This document shows positions 23,336-51,647 of a stretch of DNA of 64,000 nt, in pieces. Source of the DNA: an uncultured Bacilli bacterium (lineage in GTDB: Bacteria; Bacillota_I; Bacilli_A; RF39; UBA660); NCBI GenBank assembly GCA_934183185.1, contig CAKPSO010000003.1, positions 3,215 through 67,214 of the forward strand, written 5' to 3'. Every line of letters begins with the position of its first letter. Position 1 is the stretch's first letter. The translations under genes and the position numbers were made by a program. The notes under the pieces were generated by a model. That model saw only the letters and a program-made list of their open reading frames with translations, was not told the origin of the DNA and made no database searches.

Positions 23336-23515
23336 AGCAACACCTCAATCCCAAAATAAATATATCATGTGTAATGCTATATGTAAACATATTTTATTAA
23401 AACATTATTATTGATATTACATAACACATATTACTTAAAATAATTTAAAAAAAAGATAAAAAAAATGTCCAATTATAAAATAATTGCATATGATGATAAC
23501 AAAGGAGTTTTTGCT

Positions 23516-24082
23516 ATGAATAAAAATAATAATCCTAACTGCTATCCATATTTTCCTGGACCTACTGGGCCAACCGGACCTACAGGATTGCAGGGACCAG
23601 CTGGTATTCAAGGGCCACAAGGTGAACAAGGGCCAACTGGTCCAACAGGTCCTGCAGCAACAAATCCGGCCACATTTGCCTATAAATATAACGACGAGGG
23701 TACAGAATTAAACCTAACAGCCAATAAAACAGATAAAATTGCCTTAAGTATTGCTGGAGAAGCTTCTGGAATATCAGTAACACTAGAAAATAGTATGGTA
23801 ATAAATAGTTATGGAACTTATAAAATAGAATACTTTTTTTCTGGATCAGCTGATAAAAACGTTGGTATAGTAACAGAAGTAGAAGTCAATGACATATCAG
23901 TAAATGGATCAGAAATAAGTAAAGATGTAACTGCTAATAATGAAGCAGATTTTCACGGAATCACAGTAGCAGTTCTTAACCCTTTAGATACAATCTATTT
24001 AGGTATAAGAGCTAATCAAGATACAGTAGTAACACCAGCACCAGATGTAAACGCTTACTTAATTCTAACTAAACTATCTTAA
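23516..24082 (+). CDS. BclA-like collagen-triplet exosporium protein (third paralog)
   Basis: [30 protein letters not shown]... then a C-terminal domain with [10 protein letters not shown]...AYLILTKLS paralogous to 15266-16012. AAAGGAG RBS 8 nt before the ATG at 23516. Confidence 0.8.
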
Positions 24083-28539: not shown

Positions 28540-28558
28540 AAGAGATATTCAATCTCTT
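28540..28558 (-). terminator. hairpin terminator after sigF
   Basis: AAGAGAT-loop-ATCTCTT followed by a T-rich run on minus. Confidence 0.45.
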
Positions 28559-29225
28559 AAGCAACTTCTTTCCTTAACTTTTGGAGAATCTTACTTTCTT
28601 CTCTTGAAACTTTAACTTGAGAAAGTCCCATCATTTTACTAGTTTCACTCTGAGTCATATCCTCAAAATAACGATACTTAATAAGTCTTTGTTCTTCTTC
28701 TGATAATCTAGTTAAAGCTTCTTTTAAATCAAGTACATCTTCATTGAATCCTTTTTCTTGATATGGAATAGTATCATATAAGTTAACATCTTTATCACCA
28801 TCATCACTATTAACTATATAATCAAAACTAAGTACAAATTGTTTAGACATTAATGCTTCTTGTATTAGTGAAATATCTATTTCAGAAAACAAAGATATTT
28901 CTTCTAATGTAGGTTCTCTTAGTAATTTATGCCTCAATGTATTAGAAACATCTTCTACTATTTTAGCTATTTTAAGTAAATTACGATTTGTTTTAATATT
29001 TCTATCTTCTCTAATATATTTAAGTATTTCTCCTTTAATCCACAAATATGCATATGAAGAAAATTTGGTATTAGAGTTCTCTTTATAGTTATCATAAGCT
29101 TTTTTTAATCCAATCATACCTACTTGTTTTAAATCTTCTATATCGTAATAATAATGAAATTTATTAGCATAAGCTAAAATTAGGTTTTCATATTTAAGTA
29201 ATTCTTCTTCAAAAGTATTAGTCAT
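28557..29225 (-). CDS. sigF: sporulation sigma factor SigF (SigF/SigG family)
   Basis: Sigma-70 regions 2-4 (YAYLWIKGEILKYIR; C-terminal SQVKVSREESKILQKLRK). Lies between spoIIAA and spoVA as in Clostridium. Confidence 0.8.
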   Translation of the reverse strand: MTNTFEEELLKYENLILAYANKFHYYYDIEDLKQVGMIGLKKAYDNYKENSNTKFSSYAYLWIKGEILKYIREDRNIKTNRNLLKIAKIVEDVSNTLRHKLLREPTLEEISLFSEIDISLIQEALMSKQFVLSFDYIVNSDDGDKDVNLYDTIPYQEKGFNEDVLDLKEALTRLSEEEQRLIKYRYFEDMTQSETSKMMGLSQVKVSREESKILQKLRKEVA

Positions 29226-29238
29226 ATTATCATCCTTT

Positions 29239-29589
29239 TTAAATATTTATTAATCGAAAGGCACCAAGTTCATTACTACTACTTTCTATATTCTGAAAGG
29301 CTAAATTAATTTCTTTAGTAACTTTTCTATGTATAATGGAATCATATCCACATACTACTAATTTTCCATCATGCATAATAACATCAAAATAGTGATCCAT
29401 AATACTTTTAATACCGACTTCATCAATGGATGTTAGATTTTCCAGATTAATAACAAAGTAACGTATTCCTTGTTCATATATCATTCTATCTAATTCTTCA
29501 TTTAATTGTTTAGATGTTCTTTCACTAAGAATTCCTTCTAAACGCACAAACAACATACCACGTACAAACTCCATATTAATTTTGAACAT
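29239..29589 (-). CDS. spoIIAA: SpoIIAA-like STAS-domain anti-sigma-factor antagonist with Ser-to-Glu substitution at the phospho-site
   Basis: Aligns to B. subtilis SpoIIAA over VINLENLTSIDEVGIKSIM vs VLNLEDLSFMDSSGLGVIL, so phosphoserine S58 is replaced by E and S59 by V. Confidence 0.75.
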   Translation of the reverse strand: MFKINMEFVRGMLFVRLEGILSERTSKQLNEELDRMIYEQGIRYFVINLENLTSIDEVGIKSIMDHYFDVIMHDGKLVVCGYDSIIHRKVTKEINLAFQNIESSSNELGAFRLINI

Positions 29590-29648
29590 ATCTCACCTCT
29601 TGTTTTATGTATATTTAATATAGCTCTTTTTTAATAATTTTTATACAC

Positions 29649-29655
29649 TTTCGAC
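29649..29655 (-). promoter_or_regulatory. putative Spo0A box (TGTCGAA) upstream of spoIIAA
   Basis: Minus strand reads TGTCGAA about 60 nt upstream of the spoIIAA start. Confidence 0.35.
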
Positions 29656-29720
29656 AAAAGATGTCAAAACTTCCCATAGAAAAATAACTGAACATCAACT
29701 ATTCAGTTATTTATATTTAA

Positions 29721-31451
29721 TTATTCTACAACAAATGGATCAGAACTTGTGCCTATTCCAGAAGCTTTAACATTTGGTTTTATGTTTATTACAGGTCTAA
29801 CAGGACTAGGCATTATTAACAATTTGCTACCTGAAACATTATCTTGATTTCTATAAACGATCCAACCTCTACCATCAGTTTTATCAAAACCGCCTGGATT
29901 AATCATAAATGTATCAATATCACTATATAAATACCATGCAGACATTTTTTTATTTATGTAGCCACCAGCATATACTACTTCATCATATGAAATTAATCCA
30001 ATTTTTTTATATAAAATACCATGATTATTATCATCATTAGTACAAGTAAAATTTACAATATATTTATCATATACAGGTGCAATTATATTATTATATCTAT
30101 AAGTAGAGTTTGCTTTAACCTTCGCTTGTTCACAAAAAATGCCATCAGTTATATAAGAATCATAATTAACTAATTTTAAAGTATACCAATTTTCTAATTC
30201 TTTCAATAAGTTACTGTTAGAAAAATAAAATGTTTCATAATCCGATGTAGTATCCCAAGAATAGGCACTATTATCATTAATGCCTTCTTTCATAATAATT
30301 CTTATCGTTCCATCTTCATTTATTCTTACTATTCTCCACGTAAGCCCTGCAAATGATACATAATTATTTTCTACATTTCCTCTAAAATAATATGTTGGAT
30401 CTCCTGTATTAGTAGCAGTTGATTTATATAAGCCACTTGCATCTCTAGAATCCTCATAAGTAGTAGTTAATGTTGGTTCTGCATCTATTACTTCATATTT
30501 TTTTCCAAATATTGATACTTTCTCTGCCTGCTTTACTTTAATATTAATTTTGTATTCTTTAGTTACTGTTTGATCTGTACTAGTAATAGTTACTTTATAG
30601 ATATTATTACCACCTACTAGACTTACTTCACTATTATTTGATATTACTTGATTATCTTTTTCTATCTTTACATTAGCTAATGAATACTTAGGTACTATAT
30701 TTAACTTAGCTGTTGTATCACTATCTAACTCTACTTCATAGTTCCAGTCTTTATTTTCAACTTTAGTTAAACTGGTATCTCCTATAGTTATATTTTTTAT
30801 ATCAGTATTACTTCTTAATGCTTGTTCTTCTTCTGATATTACTTTAGCATTTGAATATACATTTACTGTTGCTGTAAAGGTTTGTCCTCCTATAACGCTT
30901 AAATCTGCATTTTCATCTAACCACATTTTTAATCTAAATGTCTTTAAATAATTATTAGTATTTCCTGCTACTTCTCCCTTGTAGATACTCTTTTCTACAT
31001 TATTTCCAACATCAGTAGTAGTTTGTACTAATTTACTATATAGGGTTGGTGTTAGTAATTCTGTTTGATCTATCCCATCTTGAAGATATACTTTTATATT
31101 ATCTTCACCCATAGTAGAAGTAGCTTTCTTTCTTAGTGTTACTTCATATGGTATTACTTCATTTCCTGTATTTGTTCCCTCTACTTTGAAATCAAATACA
31201 TTATTATCTCCTACTAATTCTTTACCCTTAGTATCTGATATTGGTTCTGCCTCAGTTATACTTATTCCATTACCATTAGTATTATTTTCTGTATACAAGA
31301 ACTTTAATGTACCAGTGGTAACTACATTATCTGTAGTTCCTTCTTTAGTATAAGTAAATACTGCATATGTTACTCCTATAGTTATTAAAAATAAACTTAA
31401 TATTCCTAATACTGAAAATAATATCTGTTTACTTTTATTCTTATCTTTCAT
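29721..31451 (-). CDS. secreted protein with SipW-cognate (TasA/camelysin-type) signal peptide, TasA-like N-domain and a C-terminal ~270 aa domain of unknown function
   Basis: LITIGVTYAVFTYTKEGTTDNVVTTGTLKF parallels TasA GGTWAAFNDIKSKDATFASGTLDL. The C-terminal domain (GLYKSTATNTGDPTYYFRGNVENNYVSFAGLTWRIVRINEDGTIRIIM...GIGTSSDPFVVE) is paralogous to both halves of 45984-47789. Confidence 0.6.
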   Translation of the reverse strand: MKDKNKSKQILFSVLGILSLFLITIGVTYAVFTYTKEGTTDNVVTTGTLKFLYTENNTNGNGISITEAEPISDTKGKELVGDNNVFDFKVEGTNTGNEVIPYEVTLRKKATSTMGEDNIKVYLQDGIDQTELLTPTLYSKLVQTTTDVGNNVEKSIYKGEVAGNTNNYLKTFRLKMWLDENADLSVIGGQTFTATVNVYSNAKVISEEEQALRSNTDIKNITIGDTSLTKVENKDWNYEVELDSDTTAKLNIVPKYSLANVKIEKDNQVISNNSEVSLVGGNNIYKVTITSTDQTVTKEYKINIKVKQAEKVSIFGKKYEVIDAEPTLTTTYEDSRDASGLYKSTATNTGDPTYYFRGNVENNYVSFAGLTWRIVRINEDGTIRIIMKEGINDNSAYSWDTTSDYETFYFSNSNLLKELENWYTLKLVNYDSYITDGIFCEQAKVKANSTYRYNNIIAPVYDKYIVNFTCTNDDNNHGILYKKIGLISYDEVVYAGGYINKKMSAWYLYSDIDTFMINPGGFDKTDGRGWIVYRNQDNVSGSKLLIMPSPVRPVINIKPNVKASGIGTSSDPFVVE

Positions 31452-31605
31452 TATAAAGAACCTCCTACTACCTATTCTTTACTAAATTATACAAATAATA
31501 CTATCTCTAGCCTCTACTTTATTTATAAATTTATTATACACGTTTTGCGTGTATAATTCAATACAAACTTTCCGTGTATGAGGGAATACCTTAGAGGTGT
31601 AGAAT

Positions 31606-31851
31606 ATGAATAGATTAAAAGATCTCAGAGAAGATAAAGACTTATTTCCAAAAGATATAGCTAAAATTTTAAACGTAACCCAACAACAATATTCTCGCTG
31701 TGAAACTGAAGAAAATCAACTATCATATGATGGATTAATTAAACTAGCATTATTCTACAAGACATCAATCGATTACATCTTAGGAATTACTGATATTAAA
31801 GAACCATATCCAAGACATTCTAAAAATAAAAGAACATTATCTAAAGTATAA
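31606..31851 (+). CDS. small XRE-family HTH regulator, divergent from TasA-signal protein gene
   Basis: LFPKDIAKILNVTQQQYSRCE HTH. C-terminal YKTSIDYILGITDIKEPYP shared with 47900-48124. Palindrome TATACACG-TTTTG-CGTGTATA in the shared promoter region. Confidence 0.7.
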   Translation: MNRLKDLREDKDLFPKDIAKILNVTQQQYSRCETEENQLSYDGLIKLALFYKTSIDYILGITDIKEPYPRHSKNKRTLSKV

Positions 31852-31867
31852 AAAAATAATAATAGAC

Positions 31868-34243
31868 TCAACACCTATCATTATTTTTTTTATTTTCTAA
31901 CCAATCTAAACCATCTAACACTAATTTATTTAATTTCTGAAATATATATAATGAACATATCAATAACACTACAAATATCAAACTAATTTGAAAATTAAGT
32001 GCTGAAATATTGAAAAACTTATATTGAAAAACAGAACAATAAATAAATCCTAATAATAGCATTATCCATAAAGTACGTCTAAACCAATTAAATGGCTGAC
32101 ATAAACGATATAAAAATATAAACCCTGTCATACCAGTTAAAAATACTACTAAACTAGAAACAACATCTTCATTTAAATTAAACCCATATTTAAATAACAT
32201 AATCATAATAACATTAAATACTACAGTAAGTGCAGCTGGTACACTTTTACTAACAACTTTAAGTAAAAAGTTACCCTTAACAATATCAGTATTTGGTTCA
32301 AGTGCTAATACAAATGATGGAATACCAATAGTAAATCCAGTAATTAACGTTAACTGTATTGGAATAAAAAAATATTTGCTAGATAAAAATACACATATTA
32401 GAATCAAAAAAACTGTAAATATAGTTTTTACTAATAATAAAGATGCACTTCTTTCAATATTATTAATAGTTCTTCTACCCTCTCCTACTATATGGGGCAT
32501 AGCTGAAAAATTAGAATCTAATAAAACAAGTTGACTAACATTACGACTAGCCTCCATACCACTAGCCATAGCTATACTACAATCAGCTTCTTTTAAAGCT
32601 AATACATCATTTACTCCATCACCTGTCATTGCAACTGTATGTCCATTAGCTTTTAATATCTCTATAATTCTTTTTTTCTGTATCGGAGTAACTCTACCAA
32701 ATATGTTATATTTCATAACAGCATCTTCTAACTGTTTATCATCTAAAGTACTAGCATCTATTCCATTAACATTTTCAAGTCCAGCTCTCTCTGCTATTTT
32801 AGATACAGTCCTATAATGGTCACCAGATATAATTTTTACTTCAACACCCTGTTTTTTAAAATACTCTAGTGTCACCTTAGCATCACTTCTTACTTTATCT
32901 TGAATCAAAATATAACCAACAACTTCTAAATGTAAAGGTCTTTCTTTAAGTAACTCTTTACTATAAGCAAGTACTAATACTCTATAATCATTTTGGTATA
33001 AAGCAATTTTATCTTTAACTTTATCTACTTCATCTCCTAAAACAAATTCTGGAGCTCCTAAATAATAAGTTCCGATTTCAATAAATGTAACCCCAGAAAA
33101 CTTACGTTGTGAAGAAAAAGGTAATATCTGCTGTGACACCCATTCTTTCTTTACACCACAATCTTCCTCTAAAGCTAAAGAAGTAGAATTACGTTCAGTT
33201 ATAGCACCAAGCATTTCTGCAATAATATTTTTCATTTCTTTTATATCATGCCCATTATCAGCAATAAGATTATTAACTTCCATCTTACCTTCAGTAATAG
33301 TTCCTGTTTTATCCAAACAAATAACGTCAACTCTAGCCAAAGTCTCAATACAATATAACTGCTGCACTAATACTTTATATTTAGATAATCTAATAACACT
33401 AACTGCCATAACTGAACTAGTAAGTAAAATTAATCCTTCAGGTATCATTCCTATTAATGCTGCAACTGTAGAAAATACAGAAGTATATATGTTATTAGTT
33501 ATACTATACTGATTATAGAAAAATAAAATACCTATTGGAACAATAAAGAAAGATATTATTTTTAATAATTTCTCAAAAGAATTTAATATTACCGAATTAC
33601 TTTTCTTATTATATTTAGCCCCACTTGATATTTGAGAAATATAATTATCACTACCAATATGTTCCACCCTAACATAACAATTACCACTAACTACAAAACT
33701 ACCAGATAACAAAGTATCTCCCTTTTTCTTTAATATTGGGTCTACTTCTCCTGTTAAAAAAGATTCATTTACTTCTATTTCTCCATCTAGCAAGGTAGAA
33801 TCTACTACTATTTGATTACCAGTTTCAAAATATAATACATCATCTAAAACAATTTCATTAATTTCTATTTTCTGCTGTTTACCATTACGAATAACTGTTA
33901 CTTTAGAAGATGCTAGTAATGATAATTTATCAATAACTTTCTTAGAAATAATTTCTTGTATCGTACTAATAATAGTATTACATATAATAACACCCATAAA
34001 CAAGCAATTTTTTAATGATTGAAAAATAGTACCTTGTATTACTCCAACCACAATAATAGCAGCACCTAATACTATGTTTAAAAAGTTAAAATATGTAAAA
34101 CAGTTATCTCTAATAATCTTAGGAATAGTTTTGGTAGTAGGCTGATTATCATAGTTAACCATTCCATTTTCTATTCTTTCATTTACCTGTTCTTCTGTTA
34201 ATCCTTCTTTAAAATATGGTTCGTATCTTTCAATTAATCCCAT
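31868..34243 (-). CDS. cation-transporting P-type ATPase (P2/P3-type, MgtA/Ca-ATPase-like)
   Basis: ICLDKTGTITEGK phosphorylation motif, MTGDGVNDVLALKEADCSIAM hinge, 10 TM. Confidence 0.9.
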   Translation of the reverse strand: MGLIERYEPYFKEGLTEEQVNERIENGMVNYDNQPTTKTIPKIIRDNCFTYFNFLNIVLGAAIIVVGVIQGTIFQSLKNCLFMGVIICNTIISTIQEIISKKVIDKLSLLASSKVTVIRNGKQQKIEINEIVLDDVLYFETGNQIVVDSTLLDGEIEVNESFLTGEVDPILKKKGDTLLSGSFVVSGNCYVRVEHIGSDNYISQISSGAKYNKKSNSVILNSFEKLLKIISFFIVPIGILFFYNQYSITNNIYTSVFSTVAALIGMIPEGLILLTSSVMAVSVIRLSKYKVLVQQLYCIETLARVDVICLDKTGTITEGKMEVNNLIADNGHDIKEMKNIIAEMLGAITERNSTSLALEEDCGVKKEWVSQQILPFSSQRKFSGVTFIEIGTYYLGAPEFVLGDEVDKVKDKIALYQNDYRVLVLAYSKELLKERPLHLEVVGYILIQDKVRSDAKVTLEYFKKQGVEVKIISGDHYRTVSKIAERAGLENVNGIDASTLDDKQLEDAVMKYNIFGRVTPIQKKRIIEILKANGHTVAMTGDGVNDVLALKEADCSIAMASGMEASRNVSQLVLLDSNFSAMPHIVGEGRRTINNIERSASLLLVKTIFTVFLILICVFLSSKYFFIPIQLTLITGFTIGIPSFVLALEPNTDIVKGNFLLKVVSKSVPAALTVVFNVIMIMLFKYGFNLNEDVVSSLVVFLTGMTGFIFLYRLCQPFNWFRRTLWIMLLLGFIYCSVFQYKFFNISALNFQISLIFVVLLICSLYIFQKLNKLVLDGLDWLENKKNNDRC

Positions 34244-34249
34244 AATAAC

Positions 34250-34565
34250 ACCACTCTCTAAAGTTATTATAACACGAGAAAAGATAGAATACTAAAAACT
34301 TAAAAAACTACAAGAAAAAAGTGTCAAATGACACTAATTTACTTATTAAAATAGTTTTATCTAAAGTATTTATATCTATCTTCTAGTTTAACCATTTTTT
34401 ACAATGTAGCCTTATAATAAGTTTCTGTTCGTTAGCCCTCGATTTTGTCCCACACTTCCTTTAGCCCCAATATCACTATTGATGCTTTGTGCTTCCCTAA
34501 CACTTCGTCGATACCTACGCGTGTATTGGACTTTCACCAACTAGATATATGCCATGCACGACATA
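34250..34565 (-). promoter_or_regulatory. structured 5' leader with intrinsic attenuator hairpin upstream of P-type ATPase (candidate metal-responsive riboswitch, class unassigned)
   Basis: Locally GC-enriched ~150 nt block (34420-34560) with GUUAGG...GGGCUAAC closing pair. Then AGUGUCAUUUGACACU hairpin plus UUUUUUCUU at 34312-34336, about 70 nt 5' of the ATG. Confidence 0.45.
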
Positions 34566-45983: not shown

Positions 45984-47789
45984 TTATCCAATTACATATG
46001 GATCAGAACTAGTTCCAATTCCTTTAGATATTCCCGTATCAGCTTTTATATTTAAAACTGCTCGAAGGCGATTATTATCTCCAACACTAAAGTAATTGAT
46101 ATTACCAGTTGTATAGACATACCATACATATGAAATTGAGCCAGAGAATCCAGCGGGACTCATTGTCCAAAAATATGTATTTTTATTATATAAATAATAA
46201 TTATTATTGGATTTACCATAATATCCACCAGCATAAACCATTTCGTCATAGCTTAGTAATCCTACACTTGCATTTACCAGTCCTTTTCCATTCCCATCAG
46301 CTGTGCATTTAAAATCAGGAGTATAACTTGAATATAATGTCATTGTTGTACTTCCAGATGTCCAACTTGAATCATATTTAGCTTTTGCCTGCTCACAATA
46401 ATAATTACCACTTGCAACTATACTAGCTAAATCAGTTTTATTTCCTATATTTGTTTGATACCAATTTTCAAGTGATGATTTAACCTGACTATTTGAATAA
46501 TACATAGAACTATATTCGTAATAATTTAAATTATTAAATCTATAATTTGTATTACTATTAATTCCATCTTGCATTACTATTCTAGTAGTTCCGTCTTCAT
46601 TAACCCTAACTATTCTCCATATTTGTCCAGCAAAACTTACATAATTATTATCTACATTTCCTCTAAAGTAATAAGTAGGTTTTCCTGTATTTGTATCAAT
46701 TGATTTATATAATCCACTCTCGTCACTAGTATTATTACTAGAATTAGTTAGTGTAGGTTCTTTTTCAATTAATTTATTATCATTCATTATAGCATCAGTT
46801 AAATCTTTTAATTTAATTACGTATGGATCAGAGCTAGTTCCAATTCCTTTAGATATTTCAGTATCAGCTTTAAGATTAATAATAGGTCTAAGTGTAAGCA
46901 TACTATTAGTAACATATGCATAAATCCTTCCAGAATTATCAATGTGCCAAACTTGTGAATCTTGTGCATCTGATGAGTCAAATCCAGCCGGGCTCATCAT
47001 CCAAAAGAAATTCTTATTATATAAATAATAACTGTCATTAATTTTATAGTAGTAACCACCAGCATAAATTATTTCATCATAAGTTATTAAGCCAATCTTT
47101 GAATTTACTAAGCCTTTCCCATTACCATCATTACTACATTTAAAGTCCGGATTATAGTTATCATGCACAATCATAGAGGCATTACCAGAAGTCCAACTTG
47201 TTACTAGTTTTGATTTAGCAGCCTCACAATAATAACTACCTGATGCCACATGTCGATCTAATAAATTATTCTTCCCTATATTATTGCTGTACCAATTTTC
47301 CAAAGTTGCCTTAGCCTCACTATTTGAATAGTACATATTTAAATAATTATTATGAGTTGTATTAAACCTAAAAGTAGCATTACCATTTATACCATCCTGC
47401 ATAATTAATCTTATTGTTCCATCTTCATTAATTCTTACTATTCTCCATACTTGTCCAGCAAAGCTTACATAATTATTTTCTACATTTCCTCTAAAATAGT
47501 AGGTTGGTTCCCCAGTATTTGTATCAGTTGATTTATATAAGCCACTCTCATCACTGGTATTATTGGAAGAAGTAGTTAATGTAGGTTCCTTTTCTATCAA
47601 TTTGTTTTTCCTTAATACTATACTTCTTAAATTAGAAGTGCTAGCTACACTAGTAATCAAGCTATTTTCCACATTTCCCTTTTCTTCAAATGAAAAAAGA
47701 GCATATGAAAAAGAAAAAAGTAATATACTTATAGTTATACCAATACAACAACCAAAACAAATTAATATCTTTTTTATGTCATATTTCAT
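45984..47789 (-). CDS. secreted protein with SipW-cognate-type signal and two tandem copies of the ~270 aa unknown domain
   Basis: N-terminus ...LLFSFSYALFSFEEKGNVEN. Two repeats, each containing GLYKS(T/I)DTNTG(E/K)PTYYFRGNV(E/D)NNYVSFAGQ(V/I)WRIVR(I/V)NEDGT(I/T)R...KGIGTSSDPYVI. Confidence 0.6.
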   Translation of the reverse strand: MKYDIKKILICFGCCIGITISILLFSFSYALFSFEEKGNVENSLITSVASTSNLRSIVLRKNKLIEKEPTLTTSSNNTSDESGLYKSTDTNTGEPTYYFRGNVENNYVSFAGQVWRIVRINEDGTIRLIMQDGINGNATFRFNTTHNNYLNMYYSNSEAKATLENWYSNNIGKNNLLDRHVASGSYYCEAAKSKLVTSWTSGNASMIVHDNYNPDFKCSNDGNGKGLVNSKIGLITYDEIIYAGGYYYKINDSYYLYNKNFFWMMSPAGFDSSDAQDSQVWHIDNSGRIYAYVTNSMLTLRPIINLKADTEISKGIGTSSDPYVIKLKDLTDAIMNDNKLIEKEPTLTNSSNNTSDESGLYKSIDTNTGKPTYYFRGNVDNNYVSFAGQIWRIVRVNEDGTTRIVMQDGINSNTNYRFNNLNYYEYSSMYYSNSQVKSSLENWYQTNIGNKTDLASIVASGNYYCEQAKAKYDSSWTSGSTTMTLYSSYTPDFKCTADGNGKGLVNASVGLLSYDEMVYAGGYYGKSNNNYYLYNKNTYFWTMSPAGFSGSISYVWYVYTTGNINYFSVGDNNRLRAVLNIKADTGISKGIGTSSDPYVIG

Positions 47790-47899
47790 ATACTACCTAC
47801 TCTCCCATTATCATTGTCTATACAAAATATACACGATATCTCATGTACTGTCAATACATCAAATGTAATGTATGAAAAATGATATAAGAGAGTGAAAAT

Positions 47900-48124
47900 A
47901 TGGAAATAAAAAGATTAAAAGATCTACGTGAAGATAAATACCTATATCAAAAAGAAATAGCTAGTCTATTAAATACAACCCAACAAGTTTACAGTGAGTA
48001 TGAATTAGGAATACGCCTAATGCCTATTGATAAAATTAATATCTTAGCTGATTTTTATAAAACCTCTATAGATTATATAGTAGGTAGAACTGATGTAAAA
48101 GAACCATATCCCAAACGTAAATGA
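47900..48124 (+). CDS. small XRE-family HTH regulator (paralog of 31606-31851)
   Basis: LYQKEIASLLNTTQQVYSEYE HTH. C-terminal YKTSIDYIVGRTDVKEPYPKRK. Divergent from the duplicated-domain protein gene. Confidence 0.7.
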   Translation: MEIKRLKDLREDKYLYQKEIASLLNTTQQVYSEYELGIRLMPIDKINILADFYKTSIDYIVGRTDVKEPYPKRK

Positions 48125-49904: not shown

Positions 49905-49937
49905 AGGAACTGTAATTTTACAGTTCCCTTTTTTATT
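49903..49937. terminator. bidirectional terminator
   Basis: GGAACTG-TAATTTTA-CAGTTCC followed by T6. Confidence 0.75.
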
Positions 49938-50763
49938 CTATTTTAGTTTCTACTTCTATTCTATTGCTTGGAGTTACCTTTTCTTTTGACCATTCACTCC
50001 ACTCTTCATAAACCTTACGTTTACAAGTAGTATAACATGAACTATTTTCCTCAGTACAACCATCTTTCTTACAACGATAGCTTTCTGTCCTAAATTTACG
50101 ATAACGATAATATGTAGTAGTAGCTAAATTCTTAACTATTACCTTTCTTGATTTCTGAGTTATATTTCCAACATAATCAACAGCAGTATAGTTAACAGTA
50201 TACTCACCATCATTAGTAGTATCTATATTAGTAACATCAGCACTATACTCTTTAACCCCAGAACCATCATCAGTAACAGAAATACTCGTTTTATAATTAT
50301 ATACTCCACCTTTTTGAACATATAATGGATCAGTAAATTGAATATTAGGTCCCAAAGTATCGATATTATTAATATTAACACTAGCTTTAGGACTAATTTT
50401 ACCCTTTTCATTCTTAACAACTACTGTATAAGTACCATTTTTATCAATTAAAATAGCATTTTCATTTTGCCATGTCTTACCACCATCAAACGAATAAGAA
50501 ACAAGTTTTACTTTCTGATTATCAACAGTAAGAGTAATAGGATCCTTAGTCCATTCAGTTATAGATAAATGAGTAACTGGCAAAGTAGCATCAGTTTTAT
50601 TAAGTAAAGTATTAACTACAAAGAAAATAACTATTCCTATAATAACTAAAGCTAATATAATACATGCTATAATTATTATTAACTTATTTCTCTTTTTAGC
50701 TTTTTCTTTATCTTCTTTAGTTTCTAATTTAATATCAAATTGATCATCTTCTGTATACATCAA
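49933..50763 (-). CDS. membrane-anchored protein with Ig-like (DUF5011-like) domain and Cys-rich C-terminal WSEWS tail
   Basis: N-terminal TM. YSFDGGKTWQ and DGEYTVNYTAVDYVGN Ig-like motifs. C-terminal YYRYRK...C..C...C..CKRKVYEEWSEWSKEKV. Confidence 0.5.
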   Translation of the reverse strand: MMYTEDDQFDIKLETKEDKEKAKKRNKLIIIIACIILALVIIGIVIFFVVNTLLNKTDATLPVTHLSITEWTKDPITLTVDNQKVKLVSYSFDGGKTWQNENAILIDKNGTYTVVVKNEKGKISPKASVNINNIDTLGPNIQFTDPLYVQKGGVYNYKTSISVTDDGSGVKEYSADVTNIDTTNDGEYTVNYTAVDYVGNITQKSRKVIVKNLATTTYYRYRKFRTESYRCKKDGCTEENSSCYTTCKRKVYEEWSEWSKEKVTPSNRIEVETKIE

Positions 50764-50771
50764 ATGTCACC

Positions 50772-51647
50772 TCAATCTTCTTTTATCATAGTTTCTACTT
50801 CCGTAGTAGCATTAGCTTGAACTTTTTCTTGCTGCCATTCACTCCATTCACCCCATGTTATATTATTACATGTCTTATAACATGTTTGACAGCACTGTTT
50901 ATTTTCATTCATTTTGTATCCAGTTGGACATGTACCAGTTTCTATAGCTGAATATGAAGAAACGCAGTTACATAAGTATGGTTCACATTGAGTAGTTTGA
51001 ACTACACCCTTTCTATAACGATAATACGTTCTACCCTTAATATCTCTAATAATAATAGTACGATTCTTTTCAACAAAATTACCTGCATTATCAAATGCTG
51101 AATAAGTAAGGACATATTCCCCCTCAGCAGATGTATCGATAGTAGCTGGAGTCACTGTATAATTATTATTAAGTCCAGAACCACTATCAGTAACTTGTAC
51201 TCCCATTCTAGGAGAAAAAATACTACCCATCTGAACATAAGTAACACTTTCAAAAGCCATAGTTGGTGGTTCATTATCTATATTATTAACTGATATTACA
51301 TTCTTCTTACTAAGTTTACCATTTTTATCCTTTACTTGAACTACCACTTCCCCATTTTTAGAAACTATATATAATGGACTTTCCTGGAAACTATATCCAC
51401 CGTCAAAAGAATATTCACTTATTTTACTAGTATCATTTTCAACTTTAACAGTTATACTTTCAGACGTCCATTCAGTAGTAGATAAACTAACTACTGGTAC
51501 TTTTACAAGTGGTAAACTCCTTATATATACCACTAATAATACCCCTAATAGTATCATTAAAATAATACAAGTAATAATAACAGCTATAATTATATGTTTA
51601 GTTTTAGTATTTGATATCTTTCTTAATGCCTGCTCTTCATTATACAT
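50772..51647 (-). CDS. paralog of 49933-50763 (membrane anchor, Ig-like domain, Cys-rich WSEWS tail)
   Basis: YSFDGGYSFQ, EGEYVLTYSAFDNAGN, C-terminal 12-Cys region ending WGEWSEWQQEKV. Confidence 0.5.
   Translation of the reverse strand: MYNEEQALRKISNTKTKHIIIAVIITCIILMILLGVLLVVYIRSLPLVKVPVVSLSTTEWTSESITVKVENDTSKISEYSFDGGYSFQESPLYIVSKNGEVVVQVKDKNGKLSKKNVISVNNIDNEPPTMAFESVTYVQMGSIFSPRMGVQVTDSGSGLNNNYTVTPATIDTSAEGEYVLTYSAFDNAGNFVEKNRTIIIRDIKGRTYYRYRKGVVQTTQCEPYLCNCVSSYSAIETGTCPTGYKMNENKQCCQTCYKTCNNITWGEWSEWQQEKVQANATTEVETMIKED

Follow-up and report, generated by a model that had tools for sequence, protein, structure and literature searches.

A predicted secreted or surface protein with a DUF6273-type lectin-like head, paired with a divergent XRE regulator, in an uncultured Bacilli bacterium

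We analysed a divergent gene pair on a 64,000-nt stretch of contig CAKPSO010000003.1 (assembly GCA_934183185.1), hereafter called the window, which has a G+C content of 27.7%. The window matches a 326-kb contig of a Hadza gut metagenome. The host appears to be an uncultured, spore-forming, AT-rich gut bacterium of the Bacilli. The pair consists of a gene for a 576-aa protein and a gene for an 81-aa regulator of the XRE family, separated by a gap of 154 nt. Both open reading frames (ORFs) lie in the divergent arrangement described in the first-pass annotation of this DNA. The features of the locus, in window coordinates, are as follows.

29721..31451, minus strand: gene of the 576-aa secreted or surface protein, including the stop codon; ORF with AGGAGG 9 nt 5′ of the ATG.
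31362..31451, minus strand: residues 1–30, predicted Sec-type signal peptide or anchor (MKDKNKSKQ, an 18-residue hydrophobic core, GVTYA), from the hydropathy profile.
30816..31361, minus strand: residues 31–212, family-specific N-terminal beta-sandwich, from AlphaFold2 (AF2) modelling; no Pfam or NCBIfam family.
30495..30815, minus strand: residues 213–319, cadherin-like immunoglobulin (Ig) beta-sandwich; PF12733, 21.5 bits, E 3e-4, cut-off 24.2.
29721..30494, minus strand: residues 320–576, C-terminal DUF6273-type domain with a predicted enlarged C-type-lectin-like fold, from AF2, Foldseek and PF19789 matches of paralogs.
31606..31851, plus strand: gene of the 81-aa XRE/HTH_3 regulator, a probable repressor; PF01381 match; ribosome-binding site AGAGGTG at 31593–31599.
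31533..31561, minus strand: sigma-70-like promoter of the 576-aa gene, TTGAAT, 17-nt spacer, TATAAT, agreeing at 10 of 12 positions.
31533..31557, no strand: candidate operator O2, perfect palindrome ATTATACACG-N5-CGTGTATAAT, with 10-nt arms at 31533–31542 and 31548–31557.
31561..31579, no strand: candidate operator O1, an imperfect palindrome directly next to the −35, ATACA-N9-TGTAT, which contains a CGTGTAT half-site.
29676..29712, minus strand: terminator-like hairpin, an AT-rich stem of 13 bp with UUUUCU behind it, lying between the end of the 576-aa gene and the spoIIAA upstream region.

The sequence supports a secreted or surface protein made of several domains. Homologs of the 576-aa protein number more than 1886. 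Searches of Pfam, NCBIfam, PHROGs and PADLOC returned only the sub-threshold Cadherin-like match to PF12733 listed above. The modelled beta-sandwich at this position (residues 213–320) reached a predicted local distance difference test score (pLDDT) of 86–96 in AF2, and homologs carry precomputed PF12733 matches; the Ig-like middle that had been proposed is thus borne out by a match just below the cut-off and by the model. The remainder of the full-length model was less uniform, with pLDDT below 35 for residues 1–80, 58–89 for residues 81–200 and below 50 for residues 389–553. All three conserved peptide blocks quoted earlier could be located, namely GVTYAVF...GTLKF at residues 26–51, PTYYFRG...GTIR at 352–384 and GIGTSSDPFVVE at 565–576.

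At the N-terminus, a basic n-region and the 18-residue hydrophobic core precede T-Y-A at positions −3 to −1 of a putative cut, and cleavage after TYA is predicted. Across 55 homologs G26, T28, Y29, A30, F32 and most of residues 40–56 are invariant. The same segment could instead act as an uncleaved signal-anchor of an N-terminally anchored membrane protein, with the motif serving to position it at the membrane or wall and the stalk holding the head off the cell. A single 18-residue hydrophobic segment behind a basic n-region would suit such an anchor, the protein has no LPXTG motif, no C-terminal anchor and no lipobox, and its stalk-plus-head build is typical of surface-held proteins. However, T-Y-A fits the signal peptidase I rule at the three positions before the cut, and invariance of the motif to either side of the cut suits a processing site better than a passive anchor. 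We regard a permanent anchor as unlikely.

The C-terminal domain had been described as not assignable to any family. This did not hold, since it can be assigned, by modelling and by the matches of its relatives, to a divergent subfamily of DUF6273 (PF19789) with a predicted, enlarged C-type-lectin-like fold. The hidden Markov model searches and structure prediction that had been proposed for this domain thus led to a catalogued family, though not to a well-characterised one. Against a PF19789 gathering threshold of 23.5 bits, the paralog P0017 from the same genome scored 23.9 bits and the homolog P0058 (57% identical) 38.7 bits. Of 38 diverse C-domains, five matched DUF6273 with an E-value no higher than 0.01, and the sole other match was a weak one to DUF1936 (E 0.0062). 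As paralogs and homologs match the family model and the 576-aa C-domain itself does not, its membership is transitive, as that of a divergent subfamily. An exhaustive search with the C-domain at E up to 1e-3 gave 3754 cluster representatives, with a maximum of 11 tandem copies in a 4905-aa protein.

When the C-domain was modelled alone from a 143-sequence alignment, AF2 gave a pLDDT of 81.5 and a predicted template modelling score (pTM) of 0.84. Foldseek found a single significant match to this model in the PDB, 9qa6 (E 7.7e-4, probability 1.0, template modelling (TM) score 0.52). This entry is the cryo-EM structure of the IgA peptidase (IgAse, ThomasA) of Thomasclavelia ramosa, and the match is to its N-terminal domain, in which DUF6273 corresponds to residues about 31–322. 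Searching PDB sequences with profiles built from the full-length and the C-domain alignments yielded nothing meaningful. The N-terminal domain of 9QA6 is annotated as DUF6273 (PMC12402451) and has been described as an irregular alpha/beta domain built on a C-type-lectin-like core, of double the normal size and closest to the head of Legionella Lcl (PMC12237041).

The two domains appear to share the double-size C-type-lectin-like core of ~250–290 residues with irregular decorations, and each is found in a setting of secreted surface proteins from low-GC gut Firmicutes. They differ in their setting and in detail, with a sequence identity of ~13%. In the sortase-anchored IgAse the domain stands at the N-terminus, joined to an M64 metallopeptidase, whereas in the protein described here it follows a stalk at the C-terminus, and neither an enzyme nor an LPXTG motif is present. 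Furthermore, a structural zinc site but no disulfides are described for the IgAse domain (PMC12237041), whereas two invariant cysteines, C440 and C470, lie in our domain. They are the only cysteines of the 576-aa protein, which fits an extracellular disulfide, and a C440–C470 bond is probable. A C-type-lectin-like core is also found in the C-terminal domain of Legionella Lcl (PF07603, PDB 8Q4E), the head of an adhesin that binds glycosaminoglycans (PMC11162425), and P0017 has a faint Lcl_C match (E 0.36). In contrast to the IgAse, Lcl gave no significant sequence or Foldseek match, and it is trimeric on a collagen stalk.

The position of this domain in relatives suggests what it may do. Among 150 representatives the C-domain is nearly always C-terminal, and what precedes it varies. 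A junction of the form [ST]-[YLF]-[AS]-x-F with a transmembrane helix was found in 27 of them by a strict pattern and in many more by eye, and 20 (about 13%) begin with a true type IV pilin signal, GFTLxELL. Some of the C-domain hits carry the N_methyl pilin domain PF07963. The other N-termini are lipoprotein signals, in a few cases, and giant repeat proteins. The repeated occurrence of the head at the distal end of display modules is most simply explained by a binding module. A comparable build, with a filament or anchor module followed by a C-terminal adhesive or lectin module, is known from the modular pilins PilB and PilC of S. sanguinis (PMC8179133, PMC9934059). The 576-aa protein differs from these in having an ordinary Sec-type signal and no prepilin motif; the type IV pilin motif G|FTLxE is absent from both window proteins. 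A further arrangement was seen in the metagenome-assembled genome (MAG) CAKPAQ01 (L018, 22..5062), where the gene of a protein with two diverged C-domains precedes a sortase-B-like gene (TLKTC motif) and then one for a secreted protein of 946 aa that is rich in cysteine.

The genome holds no fewer than six genes of the family, the 576-aa gene among them, spread over five loci. Two loci lie in the window, P0004 and P0017 are on the same contig, and a tandem pair of 595 and 576 aa is found on a second contig of equal coverage. The second window locus, at 45984..48124, encodes a 601-aa protein and a divergent 74-aa XRE regulator. Its features are as follows.

45984..47789, minus strand: gene of the 601-aa paralog, with a signal junction of the type seen at the first locus (FSYA|LF) leading directly into two C-domains.
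47826..47873, minus strand: promoter TTGACA, 17-nt spacer, TATATT; it has palindromes distinct from those of the first locus.
47900..48124, plus strand: gene of the 74-aa XRE/HTH_3 regulator, 33.3 bits for HTH_3, 58% identical to the first XRE regulator.

The C-domains of the 601-aa protein are 48% and 46% identical to that of the first locus. A far more uneven pattern was obtained when P0001, the 576-aa protein of the first locus, was compared with P0004. The N-domains are 98% and the Ig domains 97% identical, whereas the C-domains share only 49%; the first 320 residues of these same-genome paralogs are thus 97–98% identical. At the DNA level, identity is 95–100% from ~31800, inside the XRE gene, to ~30500, and then drops to ~50%. 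In the comparison with P0017 the near-identical block begins only at the 5′ untranslated region. The reverse is seen in the ortholog of another strain, which has a C-domain with 100% identity but unrelated sequence in place of the promoter, operator and XRE gene, and a different left flank. The breakpoints fall at module boundaries, which points to recombination or gene conversion among the paralogs. Within the family, the most variable stretch of the 576-aa protein is residues 521–560, near the C-terminus.

A 578-aa ortholog lies beside spoIIAA in L026 (3432..5869; strain from ERZ27287266) with neither an XRE gene nor an operator. Its left flank holds mreC, mreD, an M23 peptidase and an M50 (SpoIVFB-like) peptidase and not the P-type ATPase, with the breakpoint ~65 nt 5′ of the ATG. 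Other MAGs carry at least 11 and at least six copies of the family, and their contigs often end in the conserved 5′ part, as the near-identical 5′ kilobase makes assemblies break at these genes. One MAG, CAYRDW01 (L004–L007, L009, L013), is labelled "uncultured Muribaculaceae", yet no fewer than six family genes of a kind typical of low-GC Bacilli are found in it; the bin has probably been mislabelled or contaminated.

DUF6273 has been called C-type-lectin-like and described as a target of phage diversity-generating retroelements (DGRs) (PMC10743442; bioRxiv 10.1101/2024.10.15.618418). A phage origin, with the 576-aa protein as a receptor-binding protein or DGR target and the XRE protein as a prophage repressor, was therefore weighed. 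DUF6273 proteins in gut phages are DGR targets and putative receptor-binding proteins (PMC10743442). Among predicted viral structures (BFVD) the top matches of the C-domain model were DUF6273 phage proteins (probability 1.0, TM 0.45–0.50), the 81-aa protein matches phage repressor-like PHROGs, and variability peaks at residues 521–560, where DGR variable regions sit. The phage tentaclins and related DGR targets also resemble our protein in combining a DUF6273 C-type-lectin-like head with Ig-like domains and in showing variability in the head (PMC10743442). These are, however, virion proteins diversified by a reverse transcriptase, whereas the family described here is chromosomal, carries a bacterial Sec signal and diversifies through paralogs and recombination. 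Moreover, the neighbours of the family genes at all five loci are housekeeping genes with no phage structural genes among them, and the 576-aa protein has no PHROG match. In the window we found no ORF above 250 aa with a YxDD motif and no 3′ repeat of the C-domain other than the second-locus paralog. With neither reverse transcriptase nor template repeat in the window, we rejected the DGR target, and we consider a phage-derived protein of any kind very improbable.

The first-pass annotation had assigned the N-terminus to the SipW-cognate signals of TasA and camelysin, followed by a TasA-like N-domain. This part of the earlier description was supported only in its junction motif. When 31 diverse N-regions were aligned with 32 TasA/CalY proteins by hhalign, a probability of 78% (E 1.8e-5) was obtained over 63 columns that run from the signal through the junction into the first strands, in the register TYA-VF...N....TGTL...P against TWA-AF.......SGTL...P with a two-residue insertion in the motif. 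About half of this score is owed to the generic hydrophobic segment; without that segment the same register was recovered at 2.3% (P 0.02), and the mature parts alone gave 0.8%. Even with E-values up to 10 allowed, the first 79 residues of the two window proteins gave no match to TIGR04088, the model of the SipW-cognate signal, and the full 576-aa protein gave none at E up to 0.1. Likewise, the 576-aa protein did not match PF12389 (Peptidase_M73, camelysin/TasA), a family that was matched weakly by 2 of the 31 diverse N-regions (best E 0.0048). A Foldseek search of the PDB with the full-length model, in which residues 1–83 are poorly modelled, returned generic Ig and adhesin folds, and TasA was not among the top 50. 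The likeness to TasA is thus a motif-level resemblance, a lead rather than a finding.

As claimed before, no sipW is present in the window. Neither a motif scan, nor tblastn with LepB-type and B. subtilis SipW queries, nor Pfam labels (available for called genes over roughly 1–57.8 kb and 61.6–64 kb of the window) revealed a signal peptidase of any type there. Nor did a search for the SGSMEP motif, tblastn with the SipW sequence or the Pfam labels reveal a SipW-type peptidase in the window or in ~36 related loci. The sole peptidase near any family gene in these loci is of the ordinary LepB type, a signal peptidase I gene in L014 (3865..4816) that lies 120 nt 5′ of the family gene on the same strand.

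These results bear on a second alternative, in which the protein would be a TasA-like fibre subunit or a TapA-like cap. SipW-type cleavage after TYA would release a mature protein in which VFTYTK...GTLKF takes part in donor-strand exchange, and lectin-like heads would decorate the fibre. The junction and first strands, which lie in the TasA/CalY register, and the weak Peptidase_M73 matches speak for such a fibre. The T-aromatic-A|x-F junction, N....G-T-L and the loop containing proline are shared in register with TasA, CalY and camelysin, which are likewise secreted proteins of Firmicutes. Residues 31–83 are nearly invariant, yet they are modelled at low confidence; residues 26–56 in particular are invariant with a pLDDT below 35 in the monomer, as would be seen for a strand that folds only in the oligomer. 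Strand complementation is known for TasA and TapA (PMC9674648, PMC10151520), and the presence of the same head on type IV pilin N-termini in relatives makes filament display a recurrent theme. On the other hand, the fibre reading has to contend with the missing TIGR04088 match, with an hhalign probability that collapses once the hydrophobic segment is removed, with an N-domain whose remainder does not align with TasA, with the Foldseek result and with the lack of a SipW-like gene in all loci searched, where the lone neighbouring peptidase is LepB-type. The 576-aa protein is also more than twice as long as TasA and CalY and carries extra Ig and lectin-like domains besides the two-residue insertion. 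We therefore think a TasA-type fibre improbable, if worth keeping in mind.

The region between the divergent genes contains the candidate regulatory elements. The best promoter-like site in 29400..32000 is the minus-strand site 31561..31533 in front of the 576-aa gene. A perfect palindrome had been reported in the shared promoter, and TATACACG-N5-CGTGTATA is indeed present at 31535..31555; its arms extend perfectly to 10 nt rather than 8, giving O2. The 8+8 pattern with up to three mismatches occurs once in the 64 kb, against 0.19 occurrences expected by chance. O2 occupies the spacer and −10 of the 576-aa promoter. Its opposite arm presents TATAAT on the plus strand, 48 nt 5′ of the XRE start codon, as a possible −10 of the XRE gene. 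The 81-aa protein matches HTH_3 (PF01381) with 30.3 bits against a gathering threshold of 23 (E 4e-7), in agreement with its earlier identification as an XRE regulator. No riboswitch or other structured RNA was found in the leader of the 576-aa gene.

Four cassettes of the genome share one layout, in which one operator abuts the −35 and one lies in the spacer.

Window locus 1 and P0004: spacer operator TATACACG-N5-CGTGTATA (P0004: TACACACG), recognition helix VTQQQYSRCE; at locus 1, ATACA-N9-TGTAT abutting the −35.
Second window locus: ATACAT-N8-ATGTAT abutting the −35, TACATG-N6-CGTGTA in the spacer, recognition helix TTQQVYSEYE.
P0017: ACAAC-N5-GTTGT both abutting the −35 and in the spacer, recognition helix YKQQTYSLYE.

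The recognition helix of the second XRE protein thus differs from that of the first, and across the cassettes three operator sequences track three recognition helices. At the P0004 locus and in L036 the arms of O2 are kept while its spacer differs. L036 (1065..4731; NODE_240 of the same sample) holds tandem genes for 595 and 576 aa, 10 nt apart, preceded by TTGAAC and then TATACACG-TTTTA-CGTGTATAAT. No XRE gene adjoins this tandem pair, and an operator kept at a locus with no adjacent regulator suggests control in trans. An XRE-family regulator, SinR, also controls the tapA-sipW-tasA operon of B. subtilis.

An XRE gene beside a large effector could also be the antitoxin or sensor-regulator of a defence or toxin–antitoxin-like module. 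The occurrence of two-gene cassettes scattered among housekeeping genes would be in accordance with this, as would a weak likeness of the XRE protein to the CapH and RmrA helix-turn-helix models in PADLOC. The large protein, however, has no PADLOC match and bears a signal peptide and domains of extracellular type, and most of the family occurs without any XRE gene. We give this explanation next to no credence.

Taken together, the reading that we favour, at slightly better than even odds, is that the locus is one member of a repressor-gated repertoire of secreted or surface binding proteins that have a common stalk and exchangeable DUF6273 heads. The protein would consist, in order, of a Sec signal with a T-Y-A|x-F junction, the family-specific beta-sandwich, the cadherin-like Ig domain and the DUF6273 head, of which the last is most likely a ligand-recognition head. 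Stalks that are 97–98% identical and heads that are ~49% identical within one genome point to several alternative binding specificities on one stalk. Expression of the 576-aa gene would be driven by the sigma-70-type promoter, with O2 sitting over its spacer and −10. Most likely the 81-aa XRE protein binds O2 as a dimer and represses the 576-aa gene. It probably represses its own gene too, because the other arm of O2 carries the TATAAT that faces the XRE gene, and one bound dimer could then block both genes. The parts are of known types; their arrangement is undescribed.

Several points weigh against this reading. Cleavage of the signal is a prediction, and the full-length AF2 model is poor for residues 1–83. 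Neither the C-domain of the 576-aa protein nor the two C-domains of the second locus match PF19789, the former not even at permissive E-values. DUF6273 itself is a catalogued family with no ligand or function shown for any member. The N-terminal domain of 9QA6 has no canonical calcium/carbohydrate loop, and the DUF6273 domain of the IgAse is dispensable for IgA cleavage (PMC12237041). As to the regulator, repression is deduced from the geometry of the promoter, and recent duplication could by itself account for the conserved operator of the paralogs. Pairing with an XRE gene is lacking at 14 loci of three other MAGs, in two further species and in the ortholog of one strain; it is thus neither essential to the family nor a family trait.

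On its 3′ side the 576-aa gene abuts the spoIIAA promoter region, as had been stated, with the start of spoIIAA 131 nt downstream and beyond the terminator-like hairpin; the spoIIAA-like product is a STAS-domain protein. The hairpin has a fold of −12.7 kcal/mol (z-score −2.2) and was missed by a consensus scan because its stem has few G–C pairs. The adjacency to spoIIAA looks incidental, since other paralogs adjoin unrelated housekeeping genes, and a functional link to sporulation was rejected on these grounds. Within 28557..29589 (minus strand) the STAS/spoIIAA-like gene is followed after 13 nt by a SigF/SigG-type sigma gene. No spoIIAB (anti-sigma kinase) lies between the two, an order that was identical in 8 of 8 strain contexts examined, and the products score far under the cut-offs of the spoIIAA and sigF equivalog models. 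One strain (L030, 3085..5946) has an insertion between the sigma gene and spoVAC that encodes an LRR_5 protein of 953 aa.

Elsewhere in the window, a P-type ATPase gene (31868..34243) has a group-II-D1D4-3 Rfam match in its leader (34368..34482, minus strand; 59 bits, gathering 32), with no intron-encoded ORF nearby. Two adjacent genes between RNase J and RNase Y (49933..51647, minus strand) encode membrane-anchored proteins of 276 and 291 aa with bacterial surface Ig-like domains. The protein encoded at 23465..24082 on the plus strand has collagen repeats and ends in a BclA_C domain of the exosporium type, which fits a spore-former.

No general principle is changed by these findings, as the parts are all of known types. 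DUF6273 is, however, abundant in gut Firmicutes and phages, with no known ligand, and heads of ~49% identity on stalks of ~98% identity in one genome offer a ready comparison for finding what the heads bind. A bolder version of the scheme, to which we attach only a small chance, is a new extracellular filament or cap subunit in which a TasA/TapA-like donor strand is combined with exchangeable heads, each gated by a private XRE/operator pair. If true, this would be a choose-your-adhesin system, analogous to variant surface-protein families and built from orthogonal repressors. Within the repertoire of binding proteins that we favour, the three XRE/operator pairs on one promoter layout would constitute a compact case of diverging repressor specificity on paralogous surface proteins.

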